From: Phycisphaera mikurensis NBRC 102666
GTDB lineage: Bacteria; Planctomycetota; Phycisphaerae; Phycisphaerales; Phycisphaeraceae
Assembly (NCBI RefSeq): GCF_000284115.1
Contig: NC_017080.1
Span: 1,440,001 to 1,472,000 of the forward strand
Reading direction: 5' to 3'
DNA: 32,000 nt
In this document: positions 4,685-29,405 of the stretch, in pieces
Numbering within the stretch: position 1 is the first letter of the stretch
Layout: each line of letters begins with the position of its first letter
Program-made: the position numbers and the translations under genes
The notes under the pieces: generated by a model
What the model saw: the letters and a program-made list of their open reading frames with translations, nothing else
What the model was told of the DNA's origin: nothing
Databases searched by the model: none

Positions 4685-4835
4685 GGGCACCGCTGCGCGG
4701 AACACGGAGGGCACGGAGGCACAGAGGCACGGAGAGAGGCACCGAGGTGGAGCGAGCGAGTTCCTGCTTGCCTCTGTGTCCTCCTCCGTGCCTCTGTGCC
4801 TCCTCTTCCTCTGTGATGGAGCGAAGCGACTGCCC
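4685..4835. repeat. Intercistronic palindromic element, family A copy 2
   Basis: Left end is GGGCACCGCTGCGCGGAACACGGAGGGCACGGAGGCACAGAGGCACGGAGAGAGGCAC. The reverse complement of the right end reads GGGCAGTCGCTTCGCTCCATCACAGAGGAAGAGGAGGCACAGAGGCACGGAGG. It lies between the urtBC stop (4639) and the urtD start (4857). The ORF-track extension 4608-4856 is read through this element. Confidence 0.8.
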
Positions 4836-7090: not shown

Positions 7091-7096
7091 TCCGCG

Positions 7097-7142
7097 CCGC
7101 GGACCGCGGGCGATCGGCGGCGACGCGGCCCGCGGTCCGCGG
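7097..7142. repeat. Inverted pair of the 13-mer CCGCGGACCGCGG / CCGCGGTCCGCGG (hairpin after the Uma2 stop)
   Basis: CCGCGGACCGCGGG at 7097-7110 and its complement CCCGCGGTCCGCGG at 7129-7142, separated by 18 nt. It starts 7 nt after the TGA at 7088-7090. Confidence 0.7.
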
Positions 7143-10968: not shown

Positions 10969-11297
10969 GCGATTGCGGACCATCGCCCACGGCCGCGGCC
11001 GCGGGCACACCCGGTGCGGCGGGCTCGCTTCGCCGCGGATCAAGAGGCGGGAGCGGCCCGGAGGCCCGCGGTCCGCGGATTTCGCTCCTGTCAGCTTGGC
11101 AGGCGCTCCCGGACGAGCCGGGGGGCTGGGCAGCGCCCCGGCGCCCTCACGGGGCCGCAGGAGGCTTCCGCGCGGCTCCACCGGCATGGCTCCCGAGCGG
11201 CACCGGCTTTGCACAAGCCCGGCGGTGGCGGCCGCTCCCCGCCCGCCGCCGACCCTTCCGGGTTCCACCACTCCACCCGCAACCTCAAGGAACAACC

Positions 11298-14776: not shown

Positions 14777-14786
14777 CGCCGGCCCG

Positions 14787-14832
14787 CCGCGGACCGCCGG
14801 CCCGGGCGACGCCCGCGGCCGGCGGTCCGCGG
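14787..14832 (+). terminator. Perfect 16-bp GC hairpin after radA (variant of the CCGCGGWCCGCGG motif)
   Basis: CCGCGGACCGCCGGCC (14787-14802) and GGCCGGCGGTCCGCGG (14817-14832) with a 14-nt loop. It starts 11 nt after the radA stop. There is no U-tract, so terminator function is an inference. Confidence 0.45.
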
Positions 14833-16294: not shown

Positions 16295-17536
16295 CTAGGG
16301 GGCGCGGCGATCGGGCCGCAGGGCGGCCCGAGCCTGCCGCAGCACCGCCCCGGCCACCCCGGGCCTGCCGCTCTCGGCCTCGGTGTCCCGGCGGATCATC
16401 TCGAGGGCTCCGGCGGGCAGCAGGCCCAGCCGGACCAGGTGCCCCGCGGCCTCCGCGCTGTCGTGAACGAGAAAGGCCGGCGTGCCGGCGGCGCGGGCCG
16501 CGGCGAGGTGGGCCTCGGCGTCGCGGTCGCGGCGGCTGCGTTGGCCCGCGTCGACGTCGCGGATCAGAACGGCGGCGATCCGCCCGGGCCGCTCGCGCAC
16601 CAGCCTCTCGTACAGGTGCGGATCGGCCTGGCCGCTGTCTCCGATGAGCAGGAAGGGCAGGCCGGGGAACGCATCCACCAGGTCGCGGGCCTTGTCGAGC
16701 TTGTGCGTGTGGCCGGGCCGCTTGATGAACTTCGACCGGTCCAGCCCCAGGTCCTGCAGCAGCAGCGGGCCCACGGGCAGCCGGTTGAGCCGGAGGAAGT
16801 CGGTGAGCAGGTCGTGGAGGTTCCAGGCGGAACTCGAGACGTAGAAGAAGGGCGCGGGTTCCTCTCCCGCCGCCTCGAGCGCGGCGTAGAGCGCGGCGAC
16901 CCCGGGCAGCGGCTTCCGCGTCCGAGCGTTGTGCAGGAAGGTCAGCCTCGCCGCGGTGAGCAGGTTGGTGATGCCGGTGTGGATCACCGTGTCGTCGAGG
17001 TCGGAGACGACGCCGAAGGGCGCTCGAAGACCCGGCCGGATCACCGGCAGCTCGCTCTCTACCGCCGCGCCGCGGACCGCGGCCTCCCGGGCGGGATCGA
17101 CGCCGCGGTCCGCGGCGCTGTCGGCGACGAGCAGGCGGGCGAGCCCCGCGTCCGCCTCCGGCGGCGGCGAGATCCGGAACCACGCGTAGCCCTCCTCGTC
17201 GGCGGTCACGCTCTGGGCCTGCGTGCCCAGCGTGGCGGTCACCTCCGCGTGCGGCACCTCCTGCGTGTCCCACCGCCGGTAGGTGTTCCGCAGGTTGTCC
17301 CACCAGCGATCCTTCTCGCGCGGCCCCCCGCCCAGCGGCGTCGCCAGCACGCGGCACCCGAAGACCGCTCGCGCCTCACCGCCCGCGGCCGCGTGGTGCG
17401 TGTTGTCCCACCCGGTGAAGGGGATCACCGACCGCGGCTTGCCACCGCCCAACGCCCGGCGGAACACGTTCCACCAGCGGTCCAGGGACGCCTCGAGCTC
17501 GTGGAGCCAGGCGTGGAGGAAGCGGGGGAGAGGCAT
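16295..17536 (-). CDS. App1-family (DUF2183) phosphatidate phosphatase-like protein
   Basis: ATG at 17536 (MPLPRFLHAW...). The DxDxT motif is VVSDLDDTVIHTG, and FFYVSSSAWNLHDLLTDFL ... PVGPLLLQDLG ... LLIGDSGQADP is typical of the App1 catalytic domain. The track ORF extension to 17671 reads through an octamer repeat and is rejected. Confidence 0.65.
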   Translation of the reverse strand: MPLPRFLHAWLHELEASLDRWWNVFRRALGGGKPRSVIPFTGWDNTHHAAAGGEARAVFGCRVLATPLGGGPREKDRWWDNLRNTYRRWDTQEVPHAEVTATLGTQAQSVTADEEGYAWFRISPPPEADAGLARLLVADSAADRGVDPAREAAVRGAAVESELPVIRPGLRAPFGVVSDLDDTVIHTGITNLLTAARLTFLHNARTRKPLPGVAALYAALEAAGEEPAPFFYVSSSAWNLHDLLTDFLRLNRLPVGPLLLQDLGLDRSKFIKRPGHTHKLDKARDLVDAFPGLPFLLIGDSGQADPHLYERLVRERPGRIAAVLIRDVDAGQRSRRDRDAEAHLAAARAAGTPAFLVHDSAEAAGHLVRLGLLPAGALEMIRRDTEAESGRPGVAGAVLRQARAALRPDRRAP

Positions 17537-17749
17537 GGCTGCGCCAGGCAAGCGGAGAAGCGGAGAAGCGAAGAAGCGAAGAAGCGGAGAAGCGAAGAAG
17601 CGGAGAAGCGGAGAAGCGAAGGAGTCGAGAGCGAAGAAGTCAGGCCGGATGCGGCGGCTGCGCCATCTCAAACGAGCTTGTCGCTGCTTCTGCTGGCTTC
17701 TTCGCTTCCGGACTTCCCGGCTTCTTCGCTCGATCCGCGCAGCGGACGC
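17532..17749. repeat. Intercistronic palindromic element, family B copy 1, with 9 tandem octamers AAGCGRAG (17550-17621)
   Basis: The left terminus is GGCATGGCTGCGCCAGGCAAGCGGAGAAGCGG... The reverse complement of the right terminus reads GCGTCCGCTGCGCGGATCGAGCGAAGAAGCC... The arms are unequal. The element fills the whole gap between the glyQS stop (17750-17752) and the App1-like start (17534-17536). Confidence 0.8.
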
Positions 17750-19318
17750 TCAACACCCCTTCTCCGCCAGGAACGCCGCCACCCGATCGATTCCCACCCT
17801 CTCCTGCTGGGTCGTGTCGCGGTCGCGGATCGTGACGACGTTGTTCTCGAGGGTGTCACCGTCGACGGCGATGCAGAAGGGCGTGCCGATCTCGTCCATG
17901 CGGGCGTAACGCTTGCCGATGGTCTGCTTGGCGTCGTACTCGCAGGCGAACCTCTGGCGGAGCTCCATGTAGAGCTTGTGGGCGACCTCGGGCATCCCGT
18001 CCTTGTTCACGAGCGGGAAGACGCCGGCCTTCACCGGGGCGAACTTCGGCTTGAACTTCATGACGTAGTCCGAGCCGGATCGCTCGGGGCTCGGCGTGAA
18101 GGCCTCGCAGAGCAGCACGAGGACGGCCCGCGTGAGGCCGCTGGCGGGCTCGATGACGTGCGGCGTGTAGCGCGACCGCTCCTTGATCTCGTCCTTGCCG
18201 ACGCCCTCGGCTTTGAGCCGCAGCTGCAGCTCCTGGTCGAAGTAGTCGAGCTTCGCGTTGCTGGCGCGGGTGTGCGCCGTCAGGTCGAAGTTGCCGCGGT
18301 GCGCCACGCCCTCGAGCTCGCCGAAGCCCGGGGCGGTGAAGGGGTAGCGGTACTCGACGTCGACGCAGGCGGACGAGTAGTGGGCCAGCTCGTCGGACCC
18401 GTGGTCCCGGAAGCGCAGGTTCGCTTGGTCGATGCCCAGCGACTCCCACCAGCGCATCCGCTCGTGCTTCCAGAAGTCGTACCACTTGGGCGCCTCCTCC
18501 TCGCTGCAGAACCACTCCATCTCCATCTGCTCGAACTCGCGGGAGCGGAAGATGAAGTTCCGCGGCGTGACCTCGTTGCGGAAGCTCTTGCCGATCTGCG
18601 CGATCCCGAAGGGCACCTTCACCCGCATCGTGTTCAGCACGTTGAGGTAGTTGAGGAAGATGCCCTGCGCGGTCTCGGGCCGCAGGTAGGCCTTGTTCTC
18701 CTCGTTGCGGATGACACCGGGGTAGGTGTCGAGCATGAGGTTGAACTCACGCGGCGGGGTGAGCGTGCCGGCCTTGTCGGTGTCGGGGGCGACGATGGTG
18801 CCGTAGAGCGACTCGTCCACCTGGCTGAGGTTCTTCACCTCGCCGTCGTCGATCGTGACGCCGGCTTTCCTCAGCTTCTTCGCGATGGCGTCGGGCTTGT
18901 TCTCGGGGAAGGCCCAGGCTCCTCTGCCCTCGACGAAGAGCACCTCGACCTGGTCCTGCCGGTACCGGCCGTTGGTCTCGCGGCAGTCGACCATCGGATC
19001 GCTGAAGCCGCCGACGTGGCCGGAGGCCTCCCACACCTTCGGGTTCTGGATGATCGCCGAGTCCAGCCCGAGCACCGAGAGCGGCTCGCCGGAGTCGGGA
19101 TCCAGCGGCGGGCACTCCACCGTCTGGTGCCACCAGTGGTCGCGGACGTGGTTCTTCAGCGCCGTCCCCAGCGGGCCGTAGTCCCAGAAGCCGTTGATGC
19201 CGCCGTAGATCTCCGAGGCGGGAAAGACGAAGCCGCGCCGCTTGCAGAGCGACACGAGCGCCTCCATCGAGCGGGCGGCGTCGGCGGGCGGGGTCGGTCG
19301 CTGGGCGGGGGCGGTCAT
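17750..19318 (-). CDS. glyQS: Glycine--tRNA ligase (homodimeric class II GlyQS type)
   Basis: ATG at 19318 (MTAPAQRP...). Motifs: LCKRRGFVFPASEIYGGINGFWDYGPLG, IAQIGKSFRNEVTPRNFIFRSREFEQMEMEWF, and an anticodon-binding C-terminus. Confidence 0.95.
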   Translation of the reverse strand: MTAPAQRPTPPADAARSMEALVSLCKRRGFVFPASEIYGGINGFWDYGPLGTALKNHVRDHWWHQTVECPPLDPDSGEPLSVLGLDSAIIQNPKVWEASGHVGGFSDPMVDCRETNGRYRQDQVEVLFVEGRGAWAFPENKPDAIAKKLRKAGVTIDDGEVKNLSQVDESLYGTIVAPDTDKAGTLTPPREFNLMLDTYPGVIRNEENKAYLRPETAQGIFLNYLNVLNTMRVKVPFGIAQIGKSFRNEVTPRNFIFRSREFEQMEMEWFCSEEEAPKWYDFWKHERMRWWESLGIDQANLRFRDHGSDELAHYSSACVDVEYRYPFTAPGFGELEGVAHRGNFDLTAHTRASNAKLDYFDQELQLRLKAEGVGKDEIKERSRYTPHVIEPASGLTRAVLVLLCEAFTPSPERSGSDYVMKFKPKFAPVKAGVFPLVNKDGMPEVAHKLYMELRQRFACEYDAKQTIGKRYARMDEIGTPFCIAVDGDTLENNVVTIRDRDTTQQERVGIDRVAAFLAEKGC

Positions 19319-19421
19319 GGGGCGGGAACGATAAGGAACCCGCACGCGGGGCCCGGGGCCCGGATCCCGGGGCCCGGGCCGCACGGGTGGCGTGGGCCGC
19401 GCGGGATCCGCACCCGGATCT

Positions 19422-22458: not shown

Positions 22459-22542
22459 GCCCGCGTGGCGGAATTGGCAGACGCGCCGTCTTCAGGTGGC
22501 GGTTCCTTCACCGGAGTACAGGTTCGACTCCTGTCGCGGGCA
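22459..22542 (+). tRNA. tRNA-Leu (anticodon CAG)
   Basis: Manual cloverleaf: acceptor GCCCGCG/CGCGGGC, D-arm GCGGAATTGGCAGACGC, anticodon stem CCGTC/GGCGG with loop TTCAGGT, a long variable arm, T-arm ACAGG-TTCGACT-CCTGT, discriminator A. No CCA is encoded. Confidence 0.92.
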
Positions 22543-22615
22543 TACGAGACGGCCCGGCACGTGGTGCCGGGCGGTCGCGTGCGCCGAGCGCGGCGGGGTA
22601 CGCTGCGGGCTCGCC

Positions 22616-22699
22616 GCGGGCGTGGCGGAACTGGCAGACGCGCGAGATTTAGGTTCTCGTTCCAGCGATGGAGTGCAGGTTCGATCCCTGTCGCCCGCA
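22616..22699 (+). tRNA. tRNA-Leu (anticodon TAG)
   Basis: Acceptor GCGGGCG/CGCCCGC, D-arm GCGGAACTGGCAGACGC, anticodon stem CGAGA/TCTCG with loop TTTAGGT, a long variable arm, and a T-loop TTCGATC. Confidence 0.92.
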
Positions 22700-22806
22700 A
22701 GCACCTCCGGGGCCCCCCGCGTGTGGAGGCGGACGCGCCGCTGCGGGTGCGGGGCGGTGCCTGCGGGCCGTGCGGCGCTTCGCTAGAGTGGCCGCCCAGC
22801 GACTGA

Positions 22807-22879
22807 GGCCAGATAGCTCAGTTGGTAGAGCACAGCATTGAAAATGCTGGGGTCGCCGGTTCGAGCCCGGCTCTGGCCA
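22807..22879 (+). tRNA. tRNA-Phe (anticodon GAA)
   Basis: GGCCAGATAGCTCAGTTGGTAGAGCACAGCATTGAAAATGCTGGGGTCGCCGGTTCGAGCCCGGCTCTGGCCA folds as a canonical 73-nt cloverleaf with anticodon loop TTGAAAA. Confidence 0.95.
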
Positions 22880-22880
22880 C

Positions 22881-23009: not shown

Positions 23010-23861
23010 ATGGCCGCCCCCGCACCCGCTTCCTCTTTTGCCACGCGGCTCGCCGCCGCCGTCGATCGACGCGGTGGCGCCGCCTGCGTCGGGCTCGATC
23101 CGGTCCTCGAGAAGGTCCCCCACCGCAACGGCGGCGACCCGGTGGCCGCCATCGAGGCCTTCAGCCTCCGCGTCGTCGAGGCCGTCGCGGGCCTGGTCCC
23201 CGCGGTGAAGCTCCAGATGGCCTGCTTCGAGCGGTACGGGAGCCGGGGTGTCGCGGCCGCCGAGCGGGTGCTCGGGGCGGCCGGGGAGGCGGAGCTGCTG
23301 ACCATCGCCGACGCCAAGCGCGGCGACATCGGCGTGTCCGCCGCGCACTACGCCGCGGCCTTCACCGCCGGGCCCCTCGCCGCCGACGCGGTGACCGTCA
23401 GCCCCTACCTGGGCTTCGACACGCTCGTGCCCTTCCGGGAGGCGGCCGCCGCGGCGGGCACCGGCGTGTTCGTGCTCGTGCGGACGAGCAACCCCGGCGG
23501 CGACGACCTGCAGTCGCTGCGGACGCCCGGCGGCGGCGTTGCGGAGGTCGTCGCGGCCGGCATCGAGCGGATGAACGGCGGGCTCCAAGCGGGCGAGGCC
23601 TACGGGCCGGTGGGCGCCGTGGTCGGTGCCACGCGGCCGGCGGTGGCCGAGGCGCTGCGGGTCCGGATGCCGCGGTCGATCCTGCTCGTGCCCGGCATCG
23701 GAGCCCAGGGCGGCGACCCCGCGGCGCTTTCGGCCCTCTTCGACGCGAGAGGCCACGGGGCGCTGCTCACCGCGAGCCGGTCGGTCATCTACGCCGAAGA
23801 CCCCGCCGAGGGCGCACGGCGGCTGGTGGCCGCCGCCGCGCAGGCCGCGGACCGCGGCTGA
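23010..23861 (+). CDS. pyrF: Orotidine 5'-phosphate decarboxylase (type 2)
   Basis: Motifs: ACVGLDP, AVKLQMACFERYG, TIADAKRGDIGVSAAHYA, DAVTVSPYLG, VFVLVRTSNPG, VPGIGAQGG. Confidence 0.9.
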   Translation: MAAPAPASSFATRLAAAVDRRGGAACVGLDPVLEKVPHRNGGDPVAAIEAFSLRVVEAVAGLVPAVKLQMACFERYGSRGVAAAERVLGAAGEAELLTIADAKRGDIGVSAAHYAAAFTAGPLAADAVTVSPYLGFDTLVPFREAAAAAGTGVFVLVRTSNPGGDDLQSLRTPGGGVAEVVAAGIERMNGGLQAGEAYGPVGAVVGATRPAVAEALRVRMPRSILLVPGIGAQGGDPAALSALFDARGHGALLTASRSVIYAEDPAEGARRLVAAAAQAADRG

Positions 23862-23892
23862 ATCGGCCCGGCGCGGCCCCCGATCCGCGGTT

Positions 23893-24950: not shown

Positions 24951-25092
24951 CGTGCGCAATTTTCCGATCGCCTCTGCGGGCGAGTCGTGCCCCTCGCTTC
25001 ATCGGCTGCATCGCCCTGCAGGGGCAGGGCTGCTTCGCCTCCTCACGAGGAACACGACGCGCGGACGCAGGCCGATCGGAAAATTGCGCACG
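24951..25092. mobile_element. MITE-like element with perfect 20-bp terminal inverted repeats (CGTGCGCAATTTTCCGATCG)
   Basis: The left TIR is at 24951-24970 and the right TIR (CGATCGGAAAATTGCGCACG) at 25073-25092. The 102-bp interior is itself an imperfect palindrome centred on GCCCTGCAGGGGCAGGGC. CTTAG lies on both flanks (24941-24945 and 25096-25100). There is no coding capacity. Confidence 0.65.
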
Positions 25093-25096
25093 ATGC

Positions 25097-25897
25097 TTAG
25101 GCCCTTCTGTCGGCGTCGCGGCCACGCTTGCCCGGCACGAGCACGCCCCGCGCGGCCGCGGTCTCCTCCACCAGCCGGCCGCCCTCGAGCACCACCACCC
25201 GCTCCGCGGCTCTGGCCACCTTGTCGTCGTGGGTCACCAGCACCAGCGTCTGCCCGGCCCGGTGCAGGCCCAGGAACAGGTCGAGCACCTCGCGGCCCGT
25301 GGTCGCGTCGAGGTTGCCGGTGGGCTCGTCCGCGAGCAGGATGGCCGGCTCGTTGACGAGGGCCCGGGCGATCGCCACCCGCTGACGCTCGCCGCCGGAG
25401 AGCTTGCCCGGCCGGTGGTGGAGCCGATCCCCGAGGCCGACGCGGCCGAGCAGGTCGGCCGCGCGGGCCTTCGCCTCGCGCCGCGTCGACGGCCACCGGG
25501 TGAGCGGCGTGGCCACCCGGGCCGCGAGCAGCACGTTCTGCAGGGCGGACAGCTCCCCGATGAGGTGGTAGCTCTGGAAGACCAGGCCGATGGAGCTGCG
25601 GCGGTAGCGGTCCAGCCGCCGCTCGCTCCCGCCGTAGACGTTCTCGCCGCGGAAGAACAGACCGCCCCCCGCGGGCGTGCCCGCGGCCGTCGGGTCGGGG
25701 CGGTCGAGCCCGGCGAGCAGGTGCAGGAGCGTGCTCTTGCCCGAGCCCGAGCGGCCGAGGATCGCCAGGCAGTCGCCGGCGTCGACCGCGAGGCCGAGCC
25801 CGTCGAGCACGCGGAGGTCGCGGCCGCCTTCGCGGAAGGTGCGGGAGACCGCCTTGGCGACGAGCAGGCCGGCGGTGGGGGGGGCGGCGTCGCTCAC
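25097..25897 (-). CDS. ABC transporter ATP-binding protein, LolD/MacB type
   Basis: The GTG start at 25897 overlaps the permease stop (GTGA overlap). Motifs: GRSGSGKSTLLHLLAGLD (Walker A), LSGGERQRVAIARAL (signature), ILLADEPTGNLD (Walker B), LVLVTHD. The rest of track ORF 25097-27628 is an alternate frame of the permease and is rejected. Confidence 0.85.
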   Translation of the reverse strand: MSDAAPPTAGLLVAKAVSRTFREGGRDLRVLDGLGLAVDAGDCLAILGRSGSGKSTLLHLLAGLDRPDPTAAGTPAGGGLFFRGENVYGGSERRLDRYRRSSIGLVFQSYHLIGELSALQNVLLAARVATPLTRWPSTRREAKARAADLLGRVGLGDRLHHRPGKLSGGERQRVAIARALVNEPAILLADEPTGNLDATTGREVLDLFLGLHRAGQTLVLVTHDDKVARAAERVVVLEGGRLVEETAAARGVLVPGKRGRDADRRA

Positions 25898-27612
25898 TCG
25901 GCCCTCAGCGCCTCCACCGGGTCCTCGGCCGACGCCCGCAGCGCCGGCACCACCGCACCCAGCACGCTGGAGACCACCGCGCCCAGCGCGATCAGCACCA
26001 CCTCGGCGGCGTCCAGGTTCGTGGGGATCGTGTCGAAGAAGTAGGTCTTGGGGTCCCACATCACGAAGCGGTACGCGGCGTTGAGCCGCTGGGCGTACCC
26101 CCCGCGGAAGAGCACGAGCCCCAGCGCCGGGAGGAAGAGCAGCAGCGCCCCGCCGGGCACCAGCCGCCGCAGCCACCACGCCATCGCCTGGCGGACGAAG
26201 CCGATCGCCACCGCCAGCGTCCCGCCCGCCGCGGCCCCGACCCCCAGCGCCCCCACGAGCAGCCCGGTGACGCCCAGGTACGTCGCGAGGAAGTGCTGGA
26301 TCGCGTTGAGCTGCAGCACGACCGCGACCGCCAGCGCCACGCCCGCGGCCGCCCCGACCACACCCACCGCCAGGCCGTAGCCCAGGAACAGCCCGAGGAC
26401 GCCCGAGCGGGCCGCCCCGATGGCGCGGAGCACGCCGATGTCGCGGGTCTTGGCGAGCACGATCATGTAGAAGGTCGTCGCGACCATCACCACGGCCACG
26501 CCGCTGATGACGACGAACAAGAAGGTGACCATGCCCTTCTCGTTCTGCACCGCGCCGATGAGCTGGCCGTGCATCTCGACCCAGGTGTAGGTGAGCGGGG
26601 GCACCCCGGCGTCCCGCTCGCGGCGGAGCGCATCCCAATGGTCCCCGACGAGCTCGGCGACGCGGCGGCGTGCCCCGCCGAGCTCGGCGTCGTCGTCGGT
26701 GTCGATCGCGTCGGCGAGCTTCACGATCACCTGCGTCACGCGGCCGGACACCCGCACCCGCTCGCCGCCGAGCCCGGTCAGCGGGTCGAAGCCGGCGACG
26801 CCCTCGAACGGGGCCATCTGCAGGGCCCGCTGCAGCACGCCCAGCGGCACCATGACCGTGCCGGAGTCCACCTCGTACAGCCCGCTCTTGAAGTCGTTGG
26901 CGACCGCCAGCGGCACGCGGACCGGCTCGTAGCTGCCCGGCGTGCCGCGCTCGTTGAGCGGGACGAGCGTGAGCGTGAATTCGCGACCGACCCAGCTGGT
27001 GCCGAAGCCGTACACGCCCGCGTCGTCGCGCCGGTTCCCGCCGTGGACCTCCACCCCGGTGATCGCGCCGGCCACCGGCGCGGGCGCGTCCGCGGTCGCC
27101 GGACCCGGGTCGGTCGGGAAGGGCGGGTCCAGCGCCCCGCCGAGCCCCGCCGGCGCCGGCGGCTCGTAGAAGCCGTATGAAGCGAGTTCCTCCCGCCGCT
27201 GCTGGACCTCCTCCTCGCTCCAGACCAGCCGCTCCTCCAGCCCCACCACCTCGTCGAAGGCGGGGAAGTCGACGCCTTGGACCTGCACGGGCTTGAAGAC
27301 GCCGCCGAGGTTCAGCAGCCCGAACCAGCGGATCGAAGGCGTCGCGCTCGCGACGATCTCGTCCTCCTCCAGCGCCTCGATCAGCCCCTCGTACCCGCTG
27401 AAACCGCCGTAGGGGTTGTACGCCTCGATCACCAGGTCGCCGGTGATCGCGTGGGCCGCCCGCTTCAGCTCCGTCAGGAACCCGCCCATCACCGAGATGA
27501 CGATGATCACCATCGCCGTGCACAGCGTCACCGCCAGCGCCGCCAGCAGCGGCGCGAGCTGGCGGCGGAGGTAGGCGAAGATGAGGGCGAGGAGGTACAT
27601 GGGGCGGGGCAT
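25894..27612 (-). CDS. ABC transporter permease, FtsX/MacB/LolC-E family with large extracytoplasmic domain
   Basis: 572 aa. The N-terminal TM is LAPLLAALAVTLCTAMVIIVISVMGGF, followed by a ~280-aa loop. The C-terminal FtsX-type module is VVISGVAVVMVATTFYMIVLAKTRDIGVLRAIGAARSGVLGLFLGYG. The ATG at 27612 lies inside the terminus of a repeat element; the second Met at 27600 (MYLLALIF) is an alternative start. Confidence 0.8.
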   Translation of the reverse strand: MPRPMYLLALIFAYLRRQLAPLLAALAVTLCTAMVIIVISVMGGFLTELKRAAHAITGDLVIEAYNPYGGFSGYEGLIEALEEDEIVASATPSIRWFGLLNLGGVFKPVQVQGVDFPAFDEVVGLEERLVWSEEEVQQRREELASYGFYEPPAPAGLGGALDPPFPTDPGPATADAPAPVAGAITGVEVHGGNRRDDAGVYGFGTSWVGREFTLTLVPLNERGTPGSYEPVRVPLAVANDFKSGLYEVDSGTVMVPLGVLQRALQMAPFEGVAGFDPLTGLGGERVRVSGRVTQVIVKLADAIDTDDDAELGGARRRVAELVGDHWDALRRERDAGVPPLTYTWVEMHGQLIGAVQNEKGMVTFLFVVISGVAVVMVATTFYMIVLAKTRDIGVLRAIGAARSGVLGLFLGYGLAVGVVGAAAGVALAVAVVLQLNAIQHFLATYLGVTGLLVGALGVGAAAGGTLAVAIGFVRQAMAWWLRRLVPGGALLLFLPALGLVLFRGGYAQRLNAAYRFVMWDPKTYFFDTIPTNLDAAEVVLIALGAVVSSVLGAVVPALRASAEDPVEALRAE

Positions 27613-27786
27613 CCGCTGCGCGGATCAAGCAAAGAAGCGAGGAAGCGAAGAAGAGGGAGAGTCAGACAAGCCGTCGGGGCTTCGCCTGCCACACCGAGGA
27701 GACGCTACCGGTGCCGACTGCTTCACTTGCTGACTTCTTCGCTTCTTCGCTTCTCCGCTTCCTCGCTCGATCCGCGCAGCGGATGC
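27609..27786. repeat. Intercistronic palindromic element, family B copy 2
   Basis: The left end is GCATCCGCTGCGCGGATCAAGCAAAGAAGCGAGGAAGCGAAGAAG. The reverse complement of the right end reads GCATCCGCTGCGCGGATCGAGCGAGGAAGCGGAGAAGCGAAGAAGCGAAGAAG. It overlaps the last 64 nt of lysS and the permease start codon. Confidence 0.85.
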
Positions 27787-29405
27787 GTCCCCACCGGCTT
27801 CATCAGCGGAAACGCCAGTACATCCCGGATCGAGCTCTTGTTCGTCAGCAGCATCACCAGGCGGTCGATGCCGATGCCCAGGCCGCCGGCGGGCGGCATG
27901 CCGACCTTCAGGGCGTCGAGGAAGTCCAGGTCCAGGTTGCGGAAGGTGTTCTCCTCCGCATCGCCGCCGAGCTGCTCGCGGAAGTTCGCTTCCTGCACGT
28001 CGGGGTCGTTGAGCTCGGTGTAGGCGTTGGCGAGCTCCATGCCGGCGACGAACAGCTCGAAGCGCTCGGCGATCGTCGGGTCGTCGGGCTTCCGCTTCGT
28101 CAGCGGGCACAGGCTGGCGGGGTACTCCACGACGAAGGTCGGCTGGATGAGGTGCTTCTCGACGGTCTCCTCCCACAGCGCGTTGAGCAGCACGTCGGGG
28201 TGGACGCCGCCGGTCTGCAGGCCCAGGGCTCTGGCCTTGGCCAGGACGCGGGCGGCGCCCTTCTCGCCGCGGGCGTCCCAGCCGTTGTGCTCGGCGAAGA
28301 GGTCGTGGTAGCTCGCCCGGCGGAAGGCGCCGAAGTCGATCTCGTGGTCGCCGTAGGGCCGCTTCAGCGAGCCGAGCACCTCGCCGGCGAGGTGCTCGAC
28401 GAGGCCCTGGGTGTGGTGGAGGATGCTTTCGAGGTCGCCGTAGGCCTCGTAGAGCTCGAGCATCGTGAACTCGGGGTTGTGGCTGCGGTCCACGCCCTCG
28501 TTGCGGAAGTTGCGGTTGATCTCGAAGACCCTCGGCAGGCCGCCCACGAGCAGGCGCTTGAGGTACAGCTCCGGGGCGATCCGCAGGAACAGCTCCAGGT
28601 CCAGCGCGTTGTGGTGGGTGACGAAGGGCCGGGCCGCGGCGCCGCCGGGCACGGGCTGCATCATCGGGGTCTCGACCTCGAGGAAGCCGCGGCCCTCGAA
28701 GAAGTCGCGGGTCGCCTTGATGAGCCTCGACCGCGTCTGCAGCGTCGCGAGGCCCTCGGGGTTGCTCCAGAGGTCGACGTGCCGGCGCCGGTACCGCTGC
28801 TCGGGATCGGTGAGGCCGTGGAACTTGCCCGGCGGGAGCGCGAGGCTCTTGGTGAGCAGGCGGAAGGTGAGCCCGCCGGTGGGGTCCTCCCGGTGCTCGA
28901 TGCCGACGGAGGACGCGTCCGGATCGGCGGAGGGGTCGCCGCCGGGCCCGGCCCAGACCGTCACCTCGCCGGTCTTGGTCTGCGCCAGCGGACCCCGCGC
29001 CGCGACGAGGTCCGCGAGGTCGACCAGCTTCGCGACCTTGAAGGCCTCCGGCCCGACCGCCTTCTTCGAGACCGCCACCTGCAGGTCCACCCCGGAGTGG
29101 TCCCGCAGCGACAGGAAGAGCAGGTTGCCCATCAGCCGCTGCTGCACCACGCGGCCCGCGACGGCGACGATCGGCCGGTCGTCGCCGGAGGCGGGATCCT
29201 CCTTGAACCAGCGATCGGCCTCGGCGTCGTACAGCGCCCGGGCGGCGGCGAGCGAGACGAGCCCGTCCTGCCGCGTGCCGAAGGGGTCGATCCCGTGCTC
29301 GCTCCGGAGCTTGTCGAGCTTGGCCCGCCGGGCGGCCAGCAGCTCCTCGGTGGAAGCGGAGGAGGCGTTGGGCGGCGGAGCGGTTCTCGGGGGGTCGGGG
29401 TTCAT
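27723..29405 (-). CDS. lysS: Lysine--tRNA ligase (class II)
   Basis: 560 aa with ATG at 29405. Class II motifs: FLEVETPMMQ, LYLRIAPELYLKRLLVGG-like (FLRIAPELYLKRLLVGGL), VFEINRNFRNEG, GGLGIGIDRLVMLL. The C-terminal ~21 aa after FPLMKP are encoded by the repeat element. Confidence 0.95.
   Translation of the reverse strand: MNPDPPRTAPPPNASSASTEELLAARRAKLDKLRSEHGIDPFGTRQDGLVSLAAARALYDAEADRWFKEDPASGDDRPIVAVAGRVVQQRLMGNLLFLSLRDHSGVDLQVAVSKKAVGPEAFKVAKLVDLADLVAARGPLAQTKTGEVTVWAGPGGDPSADPDASSVGIEHREDPTGGLTFRLLTKSLALPPGKFHGLTDPEQRYRRRHVDLWSNPEGLATLQTRSRLIKATRDFFEGRGFLEVETPMMQPVPGGAAARPFVTHHNALDLELFLRIAPELYLKRLLVGGLPRVFEINRNFRNEGVDRSHNPEFTMLELYEAYGDLESILHHTQGLVEHLAGEVLGSLKRPYGDHEIDFGAFRRASYHDLFAEHNGWDARGEKGAARVLAKARALGLQTGGVHPDVLLNALWEETVEKHLIQPTFVVEYPASLCPLTKRKPDDPTIAERFELFVAGMELANAYTELNDPDVQEANFREQLGGDAEENTFRNLDLDFLDALKVGMPPAGGLGIGIDRLVMLLTNKSSIRDVLAFPLMKPVGTHPLRGSSEEAEKRRSEEVSK

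Follow-up and report, generated by a model that had tools for sequence, protein, structure and literature searches.

The region described here is a 32,000-nucleotide stretch of Phycisphaera mikurensis NBRC 102666 (contig NC_017080.1), called the window below and numbered from its first letter. It contains the gene order rplS, lysS, permease, ABC ATPase, and almost the entire spacer between lysS and the permease gene is occupied by a palindromic element of 178 bp. The two genes, the element and its parts are as follows (aa, amino acids; nt, nucleotides; ORF, open reading frame):

27723–29405, minus strand: lysS, class II lysyl-tRNA synthetase (LysRS), 560 aa (ORF; Pfam PF01336/PF00152)
25894–27600, minus strand: FtsX/MacB-type (LolE-like) permease, 568 aa from the conserved start (Pfam FtsX and MacB_PCD)
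27609–27786, no strand assigned: palindromic element, a family A copy (inverted repeat, fold and family alignment)
27730–27786, minus strand: purine-rich 5′ arm (gene sense), which encodes the LysRS tail
27609–27665, minus strand: 3′ arm in gene sense, pyrimidine-rich, terminating in the small hairpin ATCCGC-GCA-GCGGAT
27666–27729, no strand assigned: loop region, 64 nt, with the lysS TGA (27725–27723) at its 5′ edge in gene sense
27769–27786, no strand assigned: terminal small palindrome GATCCGC-GCA-GCGGATGC, one of two inverted copies, an exact 18-mer at both ends
27609–27626, no strand assigned: terminal small palindrome GCATCCGC-TGC-GCGGATC, the other inverted copy, an exact 18-mer

The inverted-repeat search placed the two arms at 27609–27665 and 27730–27786, each of 57 nt and 82% complementary to one another, with 64 nt between them. 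A first-pass annotation, made from the sequence, had described a 178-bp element with inverted termini of about 45 nt at this place; both its extent and the exact inversion of its termini were recovered, and the arms measured 57 nt. All that the annotation says of the sequence itself proved correct. In gene sense, the 5′ arm consists of a small terminal hairpin, the units AGCGAGG-AAGCGGAG-AAGCGAAG-AAGCGAAG and then GTCAG, and the G that follows the small hairpin of the 3′ arm makes an ATG at 27612–27610. The 18-nt terminus GCATCCGCTGCGCGGATC is present at both ends of the element, in inverted orientation, and a copy with one mismatch lies at 17732–17749. These 3 matches in the window compare with 0.29 expected, and none of 100 shuffles reached 3. 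Folding of the junction transcript, a check proposed with the first-pass annotation, gave one single long hairpin of −130.8 kcal/mol, against −80.7 ± 4.4 kcal/mol for the shuffled sequences (z = −11.5). In this fold the stem pairing reaches 2 nt before the conserved permease AUG. Note that when the 5′ arm is removed, the 3′ part alone folds at −36 kcal/mol and the permease AUG is free.

An assembly artefact was ruled out because two independent assemblies, NCBI GCA_014207395.1 (contig JACHEL010000003.1) and the Logan assembly of SRR12223476, give the identical junction sequence. An intrinsic (Rho-independent) terminator was also rejected, since a promoter and terminator scan of 27300–28000 returned no terminator-like site; there is no U-tract, and the sequence that follows the stem is CCCCGCCCCATG, not a T run. 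The same scan detected no promoter in this interval. The lysS copy shows no target-site duplication, its flanks (GGGGAC on one side and CCCGCC on the other) not being direct repeats, and the Rfam scan of the window found three tRNAs only, with nothing on the element.

The lysS reading frame enters the element. The conserved core of LysRS ends at the Pro codon 27797–27795, and because no stop codon precedes the element the frame crosses the 5′ arm to the TGA at 27725–27723, near the loop. Codons 27788–27726 and the stop are within the element, which holds 64 nt of the ORF, stop included. After FPLMKP, the protein continues with VG and then THPLRGSSEEAEKRRSEEVSK. The G+C content at third codon positions (GC3) of this tail is 0.667 vs 0.972 in the remainder of the gene, and the tail uses codons that are rare in the P. 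mikurensis genome, namely CAT, GAA (three times), GGA, CGA and AGA. Most of the 60 Phycisphaerae LysRS proteins compared end 1–3 residues past FPLMRP; a minority have unrelated tails. At the orthologous junctions (related loci are designated by L numbers), the LysRS identity, the junction, the tail and the stop were as follows:

P. mikurensis: LysRS identity 100%; hairpin, family A; tail VGTHPLRGSSEEAEKRRSEEVSK; stop inside the 5′ arm
L009: LysRS identity 90%; hairpin, other arms; tail KAGEEGK; stop before the arms located by the inverted-repeat search
L010: LysRS identity 87%; hairpin, other arms; tail KAEWAGGSG; stop before the arms located by the inverted-repeat search
L011: LysRS identity 82%; hairpin, other arms; tail SPAKRAKQSEEERE; stop inside the arm
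L014: LysRS identity 84%; no element; tail AAPTQPPPTAGPRPA
L016: LysRS identity 84%; no element; tail VRGADAPDEAGSA

The L011 tail is likewise encoded by the element arm. The element-free L014 and L016 have different tails from that of P. mikurensis, and the same tail was not found among these orthologues. Since the P. mikurensis tail is species-specific and codon-atypical, and since the frame enters the element with no earlier stop, the LysRS tail and its stop codon are supplied by the repeat, the tail being non-conserved and without codon adaptation. The proposal in the first-pass annotation that the element rewrites this C-terminus is thereby supported: the repeat gives the annotated lysS ORF its last 21 or so codons and its stop. 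The annotated 560-aa LysRS of P. mikurensis is probably mis-bounded, with a repeat-derived tail, and the same probably applies to the gene ends at other copies of the repeat. The tail itself would most likely be a tolerated by-product.

In L016 the long element is absent and a lone small palindrome, GTCCGC-GGC-GCGGAC, is located inside the LysRS tail-coding region (about 2250–2275), in the place that the terminal palindrome holds in P. mikurensis. This palindrome is possibly a remnant of the element or an independent unit resembling a repetitive extragenic palindrome (REP).

At the other end of the element, the longest permease ORF (25894–27612, minus strand, 572 aa) opens with MPRPMYLL from the ATG at 27612–27610. 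The element terminus reads GCGGATGCCCCGCCCCATGTAC on the minus strand, and this ATG falls in the terminus GCGGATGC. A second ATG, at 27600–27598, comes 12 nt downstream of the first and is 9 nt clear of the element. The alignment of the orthologous permeases starts, in all seven, at the (M)YLL or (M)YKT codon (MYLLALIFAYLRRQ..., and MYKTLLISKYLRRK in L015). In L014 and L016 the start codon at the (M)YLL position is TTG, with no in-frame start back to the upstream stop. In L010 and L011 the element closes with an ATG (GCGGCATG) that is not in the permease frame, and an element-end ATG is in frame only in L009 and P. mikurensis. Moreover, a second gene caller (in L002) begins the P. mikurensis permease at the second Met, which gives 568 aa. 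Because the conserved start codon is shared, L010 and L011 do not have the element ATG in frame and the second caller gives 568 aa, we read MPRP as most likely an annotation artefact of the longest-ORF rule, with the true start at 27600–27598; the annotated start of the 572-aa permease is probably four codons too early. Thus, the idea that the element also adds MPRP to the permease N-terminus, put forward in the first-pass annotation, is not borne out, as the orthologues align from the second Met and the element-free L014 and L016 use TTG at this position. Note that in the long-read assembly of L009 the permease is called as several short ORFs, probably by frameshift errors.

The window was extended by 10 kb on each side and the resulting 51 kb were searched for repeats. 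About seven hairpin elements were found, with arms of tandem 8-nt purine-rich units, and they form three families. Family A (unit AAGCGRAG) is present at window-equivalent position −2117, at 17537–17749 and at 27609–27786; family B (unit GGCACRGAG) at 1430–1569 and 4703–4815; and family C (unit GAGACGRA) at 34448–34567 and 36041–36083. A family-A element combines a small terminal palindrome with a tandem 8-nt purine arm (AAGCGRAG), and a short loop separates this arm from its complement. When five family-A arms, taken from three unrelated spacers within the 51 kb, were aligned, the mean column identity was 77% (consensus GCATCCGCTGCGCGGATCAAGCGAAGAAGCGGAGAAGCGAAGAAGCGAAGAAGTCAG); the length of the arm varies with the unit copy number. 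The consensus is found at unrelated junctions, namely the ureF spacer, the spacer between an aminoacyl-tRNA synthetase (aaRS) gene and an APP1-like phosphatase ORF, and a second junction in L009 and L011. The tandem-unit pattern has 4+2 occurrences in the 51 kb vs about 0.1 in shuffles. In agreement with the first-pass annotation, which had called the element a non-coding repeat, 27609–27786 is a copy of a palindromic repeat, without a gene of its own, that is dispersed in Phycisphaera genomes. The other copies inside the window are:

17537–17749, no strand assigned: second family-A copy; one arm counts about nine tandem AAGCGRAG units, the opposite arm is degenerate
1430–1569, no strand assigned: family-B hairpin between two ABC-transporter genes, arms TGAAC-ACAGAG-GGCACAGAG-GCACAGAG
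4703–4815, no strand assigned: second family-B hairpin, between ABC-transporter genes

The second family-A copy shows the same gene-end geometry as the lysS junction. The stop TGA (17750–17752) of a class II aaRS gene (tRNA-synt_2b and HGTP_anticodon; 17750–19384, minus strand) abuts one terminus of this copy, and the other terminus (GGCGCAGCCATG) holds the first ATG (17536–17534) of the APP1-like phosphatase ORF downstream. The two family-B hairpins lie in spacers among Peripla_BP_6, permease and ATPase genes, and each of them has an extra outer inverted segment with the small palindrome AGCG-CTT-CGCT. A scan of a species-representative genome collection with the 22-nt terminus, which occurs twice in the window, gave 6 matches, none of them from P. 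mikurensis and all inside coding sequences (two or three orthologous genes in Vicinamibacterales, Cupriavidus and Novosphingobium), and these were dismissed as chance. A protein search with the six-frame peptides of the element, looking for other repeat-derived ends, returned nothing at E ≤ 10, and the element had no match in the plasmid collection.

A hairpin element is also present at the lysS–permease junction in L009, L010 and L011, each with its own arm sequences and its own LysRS tail; L014 and L016 have no such element, and their spacers are 42 and 102 nt long. In L009 (11640–11910) the junction element is tandemly duplicated, the two copies of about 135 nt each ending GCCGC-GAA-GCGGCATG. 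In two more distant relatives, L015 (GCA_038758265.1, LysRS 69% identical) and L097 (GCA_038747525.1), the junction is occupied by an inverted repeat, a GxxExxY gene and an inverted repeat. Here, a purine-rich inverted repeat of about 30 bp (GGGCCGCCAAGACGCGGAGGACGCCAAG) encloses a 130-aa gene that matches GxxExxY TIGR04256 (E = 8e-43) and PDDEXK_3 PF13366 (E = 3e-41). The left arm encodes the LysRS tail in both L015 (EGGRQDAEDAKGGES) and L097 (ESGHQDAEDAKGEKP), the TGA of lysS and the TTG with which the nuclease gene starts share bases (TTGA), and the permease ATG follows immediately on the right arm. No GxxExxY gene was found in the 51 kb of P. mikurensis, nor in the fetched L009–L011, L014 and L016 loci.

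We defined in this analysis a class of hairpin elements with tandem 8–9-mer arms that are associated with GxxExxY genes. For this, 34 GxxExxY proteins were aligned and 80 metagenomic loci encoding relatives were fetched; 74 loci (73 metagenomic plus L015) had enough flank. With a threshold of at least 30 for the inverted-repeat score, a flanking inverted repeat was present in 56 of the 74 GxxExxY loci, 39 of them scoring at least 40, vs none of 85 control windows displaced by 800 nt within these loci. The common-form arm has the terminus TTNACC (TTNACC...GGTNAA) followed by about three tandem units of 8–9 nt that end in CNRAG, and its complement lies beyond the gene; examples are ACCACAGAG-GCACAGAG-ACACAGAG, ACCGCAGAG-ACGCAGAG-GACGCAGAG, CACGAAG repeats and CGCCAAG repeats. 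The pattern of at least three units has 59 forward and 61 reverse matches in 192 kb, vs 0.35 and 0.15 in shuffles. The GxxExxY loci also contain gene-less short forms, with 18–125 nt between the arms, some of them as tandem arrays. As at lysS, gene ends are involved: where the ORF upstream has the same direction, its stop tends to fall within about 10 nt of the left element boundary, and several such stops are inside it. In several loci, among them L022, L063, L071, L065 and L095, the GxxExxY gene is located between two complete short hairpins and not between single arms, and L071 (1882–2378) has three gene-less hairpins in a row.

Target-site duplications of at least 3 nt were not found above chance (0 of 40 common-form elements). 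Rfam placed no family on the elements in L009–L011, L015 and 76 metagenomic loci (95 related loci overall), and none of the 76 Rfam-scanned metagenomic GxxExxY loci, nor L015, is located in an rRNA gene. In the literature we found no description of GxxExxY hairpin flanks or of the arm sequences, with a search whose coverage is incomplete. The class is widespread and, apparently, undescribed.

An nhmmer profile of 119 common-form arms detected P. mikurensis family B, with E = 0.012 at 1430–1569 and E = 0.065 at 4703–4815, and also L009 8792–8969; family B shares the common-form unit and terminus (TGAAC-ACAGAG-GGCACAGAG). As for family A, the right arm of the lysS copy (27738–27762, plus strand) fits the pattern of at least three tandem units ending C-N-R-A-G, and the units of the left arm are degenerate (AAGCAAAG, AAGCGAGG and AAGCGAAG). 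The cores GCGGAG and GCGAAG of the family-A unit are found in common-form arms too, for example in L036 and L072. Family A also shares the grammar of the class, with a period of 8, the purine arm first and the site at a stop codon, the lysS stop being inside the element and the aaRS stop abutting the second copy. From these features, it is plausible that the family-A element is a gene-less member of the GxxExxY hairpin class, a proposal for which we see the balance as even.

Several observations weigh against this assignment. The 119-arm profile misses family A, both at 27609–27786 and at 17537–17749. Family A does not have the TTNACC/GGTNAA termini but ...GGATC-GAGCG... behind an extra small palindrome, and its extra terminal palindromes and longer arms set it apart from the common form. 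Because the profile misses family A, the link to the class rests on architecture, unit grammar and locus, and not on sequence homology. In addition, mobility is suggested by dispersal and by presence or absence across species, and selection for a structured spacer could also explain why six of eight relatives have an element at this junction.

In the alignment of the 34 GxxExxY proteins the D...E-x-K nuclease motif is intact (D72, E82 and K84), and G29, E32 and Y35 are kept as well. In a census of PD-(D/E)XK proteins, PF13366 is of unknown function, with multiple transfers (PMC3424549). Searching the PDB sequences with the GxxExxY profile gave no solved structure. The AlphaFold model, a confident one (predicted local distance difference test, pLDDT, 94), has weak best fold matches, with a template-modelling (TM) score of about 0.5, to lambda exonuclease, LHK-Exo and the Cas4 protein SSO0001. 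This predicted structure speaks for a minimal nuclease core and for no particular mechanism. A tblastn search for GxxExxY in the plasmid collection returned unrelated organisms only.

Genes within long stems are known from the intervening sequences (IVS) of 23S rRNA, in which an ORF, that of the four-helix-bundle IVS protein, is in the loop of a long stem. The full-length relatives in L015, L097 and the metagenomic loci resemble them in that a small ORF is enclosed by a long stem in a transcribed region. However, the Rfam-scanned loci are not in rRNA genes, and the cargo is a PD-(D/E)XK nuclease. The full-length elements at the orthologous junction carry a member of the GxxExxY family (TIGR04256/PF13366) as cargo, whereas the window element has no such gene. 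Codons contributed to proteins by repeats are known as well, and the Rickettsia palindromic elements do so while lying internally and in frame. Palindromic repeats that add codons to annotated proteins have been described for the RU elements, which resemble the enterobacterial repetitive intergenic consensus (ERIC) (Delihas 2007, PMC2759123), and for intragenic REP units (Di Nocera 2013, PMC3733652). The P. mikurensis element has in common with these three its repeat-derived codons, which here form the C-terminal tail and the stop of an essential enzyme. It differs from them in sequence, and in that here a 3′-end read-through recurs at one junction with different variants per species. The element is a new family of a known general kind, the dispersed palindromic repeat that overlaps gene ends.

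The best explanation overall, which we consider probable, is that the element is a dispersed hairpin repeat that encodes the tail of lysS, leaves the permease start outside and is a cargo-less relative of the GxxExxY class. The element would be a cargo-less member, similar to a miniature inverted-repeat transposable element (MITE), of a class whose full-length members hold the GxxExxY PD-(D/E)XK nuclease gene in the loop, and it would persist as a selfish or neutral resident of operon spacers. Spread would probably occur through the GxxExxY nuclease or another trans-acting enzyme, without target-site duplication; the gene-less copies would depend on an enzyme supplied in trans, for which GxxExxY is the only candidate in the data. 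The arms may turn over by unit slippage and by replacement between copies, which would explain why the same junction has species-specific arms. In the mRNA, the hairpin is expected to be very stable and to bury the region just upstream of the permease start, and it would come apart when a ribosome completes lysS within the 5′ arm. Since the hairpin extends to 2 nt before the AUG, and the AUG is free when the 5′ arm is removed, the model predicts translational coupling of the permease to lysS; this coupling is a prediction only. In a wider and more tentative proposal, to which we give somewhat less than even credence, the GxxExxY proteins (nucleases of about 125 aa) would be the enzymes of undescribed, phylum-spanning selfish hairpin elements that reside within operons, wedged between one gene's stop and the start of the next, and spawn gene-less miniatures, the Phycisphaera palindromes included, among them the one at the LysRS C-terminus.

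Another possibility could be that the hairpin is a regulatory structure of the lysS–permease operon, selected by the host and evolving in place, in which case its look of a repeat would be secondary. In support of this, a long hairpin is kept at the junction in P. mikurensis, L009, L010, L011, L015 and L097 despite the complete turnover of the arms, the stem stops only 2 nt short of the conserved start codon, and the cargo gene of L015 and L097 is itself translationally overlapped with lysS via TTGA. However, the arm consensus is found at unrelated junctions too (the ureF spacer, the aaRS–APP1 spacer and the second junction of L009 and L011), and the close relatives L014 and L016 do without the element, with spacers of just 42 and 102 nt. 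The tandem duplicate in L009, the lack of a U-tract terminator and of an Rfam family match, and an arm length that follows the unit copy number, as expected of unconstrained repeats, also argue against a regulatory role. We regard this explanation as unlikely, and this judgement covers jointly the variants that can be named, that is, an mRNA stabiliser, an RNase III processing site, a terminator-like attenuator and a translational-coupling device.

The small terminal palindromes raise the question of whether the element is a REPIN, that is, two inverted REP palindromes forming a larger hairpin (PMC3116915, PMC3337134). Such a doublet would be mobilised in trans by a single-copy REP-associated tyrosine transposase (RAYT, IS200-like) and would be unrelated to the GxxExxY elements. 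The termini of the element are indeed small imperfect palindromes (ATCCGC-NNN-GCGGAT) in an inverted pair, the whole folds as one hairpin, and this layout matches that of the REPINs in those two reports. As with REPINs and bacterial interspersed mosaic elements (BIMEs), a dispersed extragenic palindrome, composed of two inverted small palindromes within one long hairpin, is found between co-directional genes, and its copies are long-lived at orthologous positions. L016 retains its lone small palindrome at the same position, and the terminus CGTC-CGC of the second copy (GCGTCCGC) recalls the CGTC-tagged REPs (PMC3733652). By contrast, neither a GTAG nor a CGTC tag fits: GTAG is absent, and the lysS copy has CATC (GCATCCGC), not CGTC. 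The stems are of 5–6 bp and the loops of 3 nt, vs stems of 8–9 bp and loops of 4–5 nt in the CGTC-tagged REPs (PMC3733652). The bulk of the element, with arms that are mostly tandem 8-nt purine-rich units, is absent from REPINs, and the full-length relatives hold a PD-(D/E)XK nuclease, not a tyrosine transposase. A REPIN origin is, in our opinion, quite improbable. Even less probable, and rejected because no target-site duplication is present, is a classical MITE, derived by deletion from an insertion sequence with a DDE transposase, whose terminal inverted repeats it would share. The element is small and multi-copy, with terminal inverted repeats and without coding capacity, as such a MITE would be, but neither the lysS copy nor the 40 common-form elements have target-site duplications, and the sole full-length relatives found carry the 130-aa PD-(D/E)XK nuclease instead of a transposase.

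Other repeats and features were observed in and around the window. A further family, D2, is made of five palindromes of about 51 nt (CCGCGGACCGCGG...CCGCGGTCCGCGG) at 7092–7142, 11028–11078, 14782–14832, 17065–17115 and 23840–23890. A different palindrome, with 19-nt arms (GTGCGCAATTTTCCGATCG ... CGATCGGAAAATTGCGCAC), fills the spacer past the ABC ATPase gene at 24952–25091; the orthologous spacer has purine/pyrimidine hairpins instead in L009 (14344–14656), L010 (14267–14507) and L011 (14513–14667). In two of these (L009 14466–14656 and L010 14341–14507), the pyrimidine arm has grown to about 170–190 nt of (CCTCTTYC)n, with a purine arm of about 45–100 nt. In one transcript orientation the (CCTCTTYC)n tract would be left as a long G-free, C/U-rich single strand that resembles a putative Rho-binding site. 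In L012 (4886–4928, window-equivalent 36041–36083), the family-C pyrimidine arm is within the first 70 nt or so of a 332-aa ORF and encodes a hydrophobic, signal-peptide-like stretch (MKPTRSLLNPSLRLFVSLSLALCGAAGA...), possibly a repeat-derived N-terminal leader. Finally, the tRNA cluster at 22459–22880, with tRNA-Leu(CAG), tRNA-Leu(TAG) and tRNA-Phe(GAA), is kept in L009–L011.

Our results suggest that an essential aminoacyl-tRNA synthetase tolerates different repeat-encoded tails per species at one and the same junction, and the lysS junction can be taken as a natural example of repeats that create and replace protein termini. The lead to the GxxExxY class could give a role to an abundant and uncharacterised nuclease family, and the hairpin-armed GxxExxY genes, together with the gene-less miniatures near them, could define a new kind of small mobile element. 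If this is true, ribosomes and polymerases crossing such elements could face an imposed coupling or processing of host operons.

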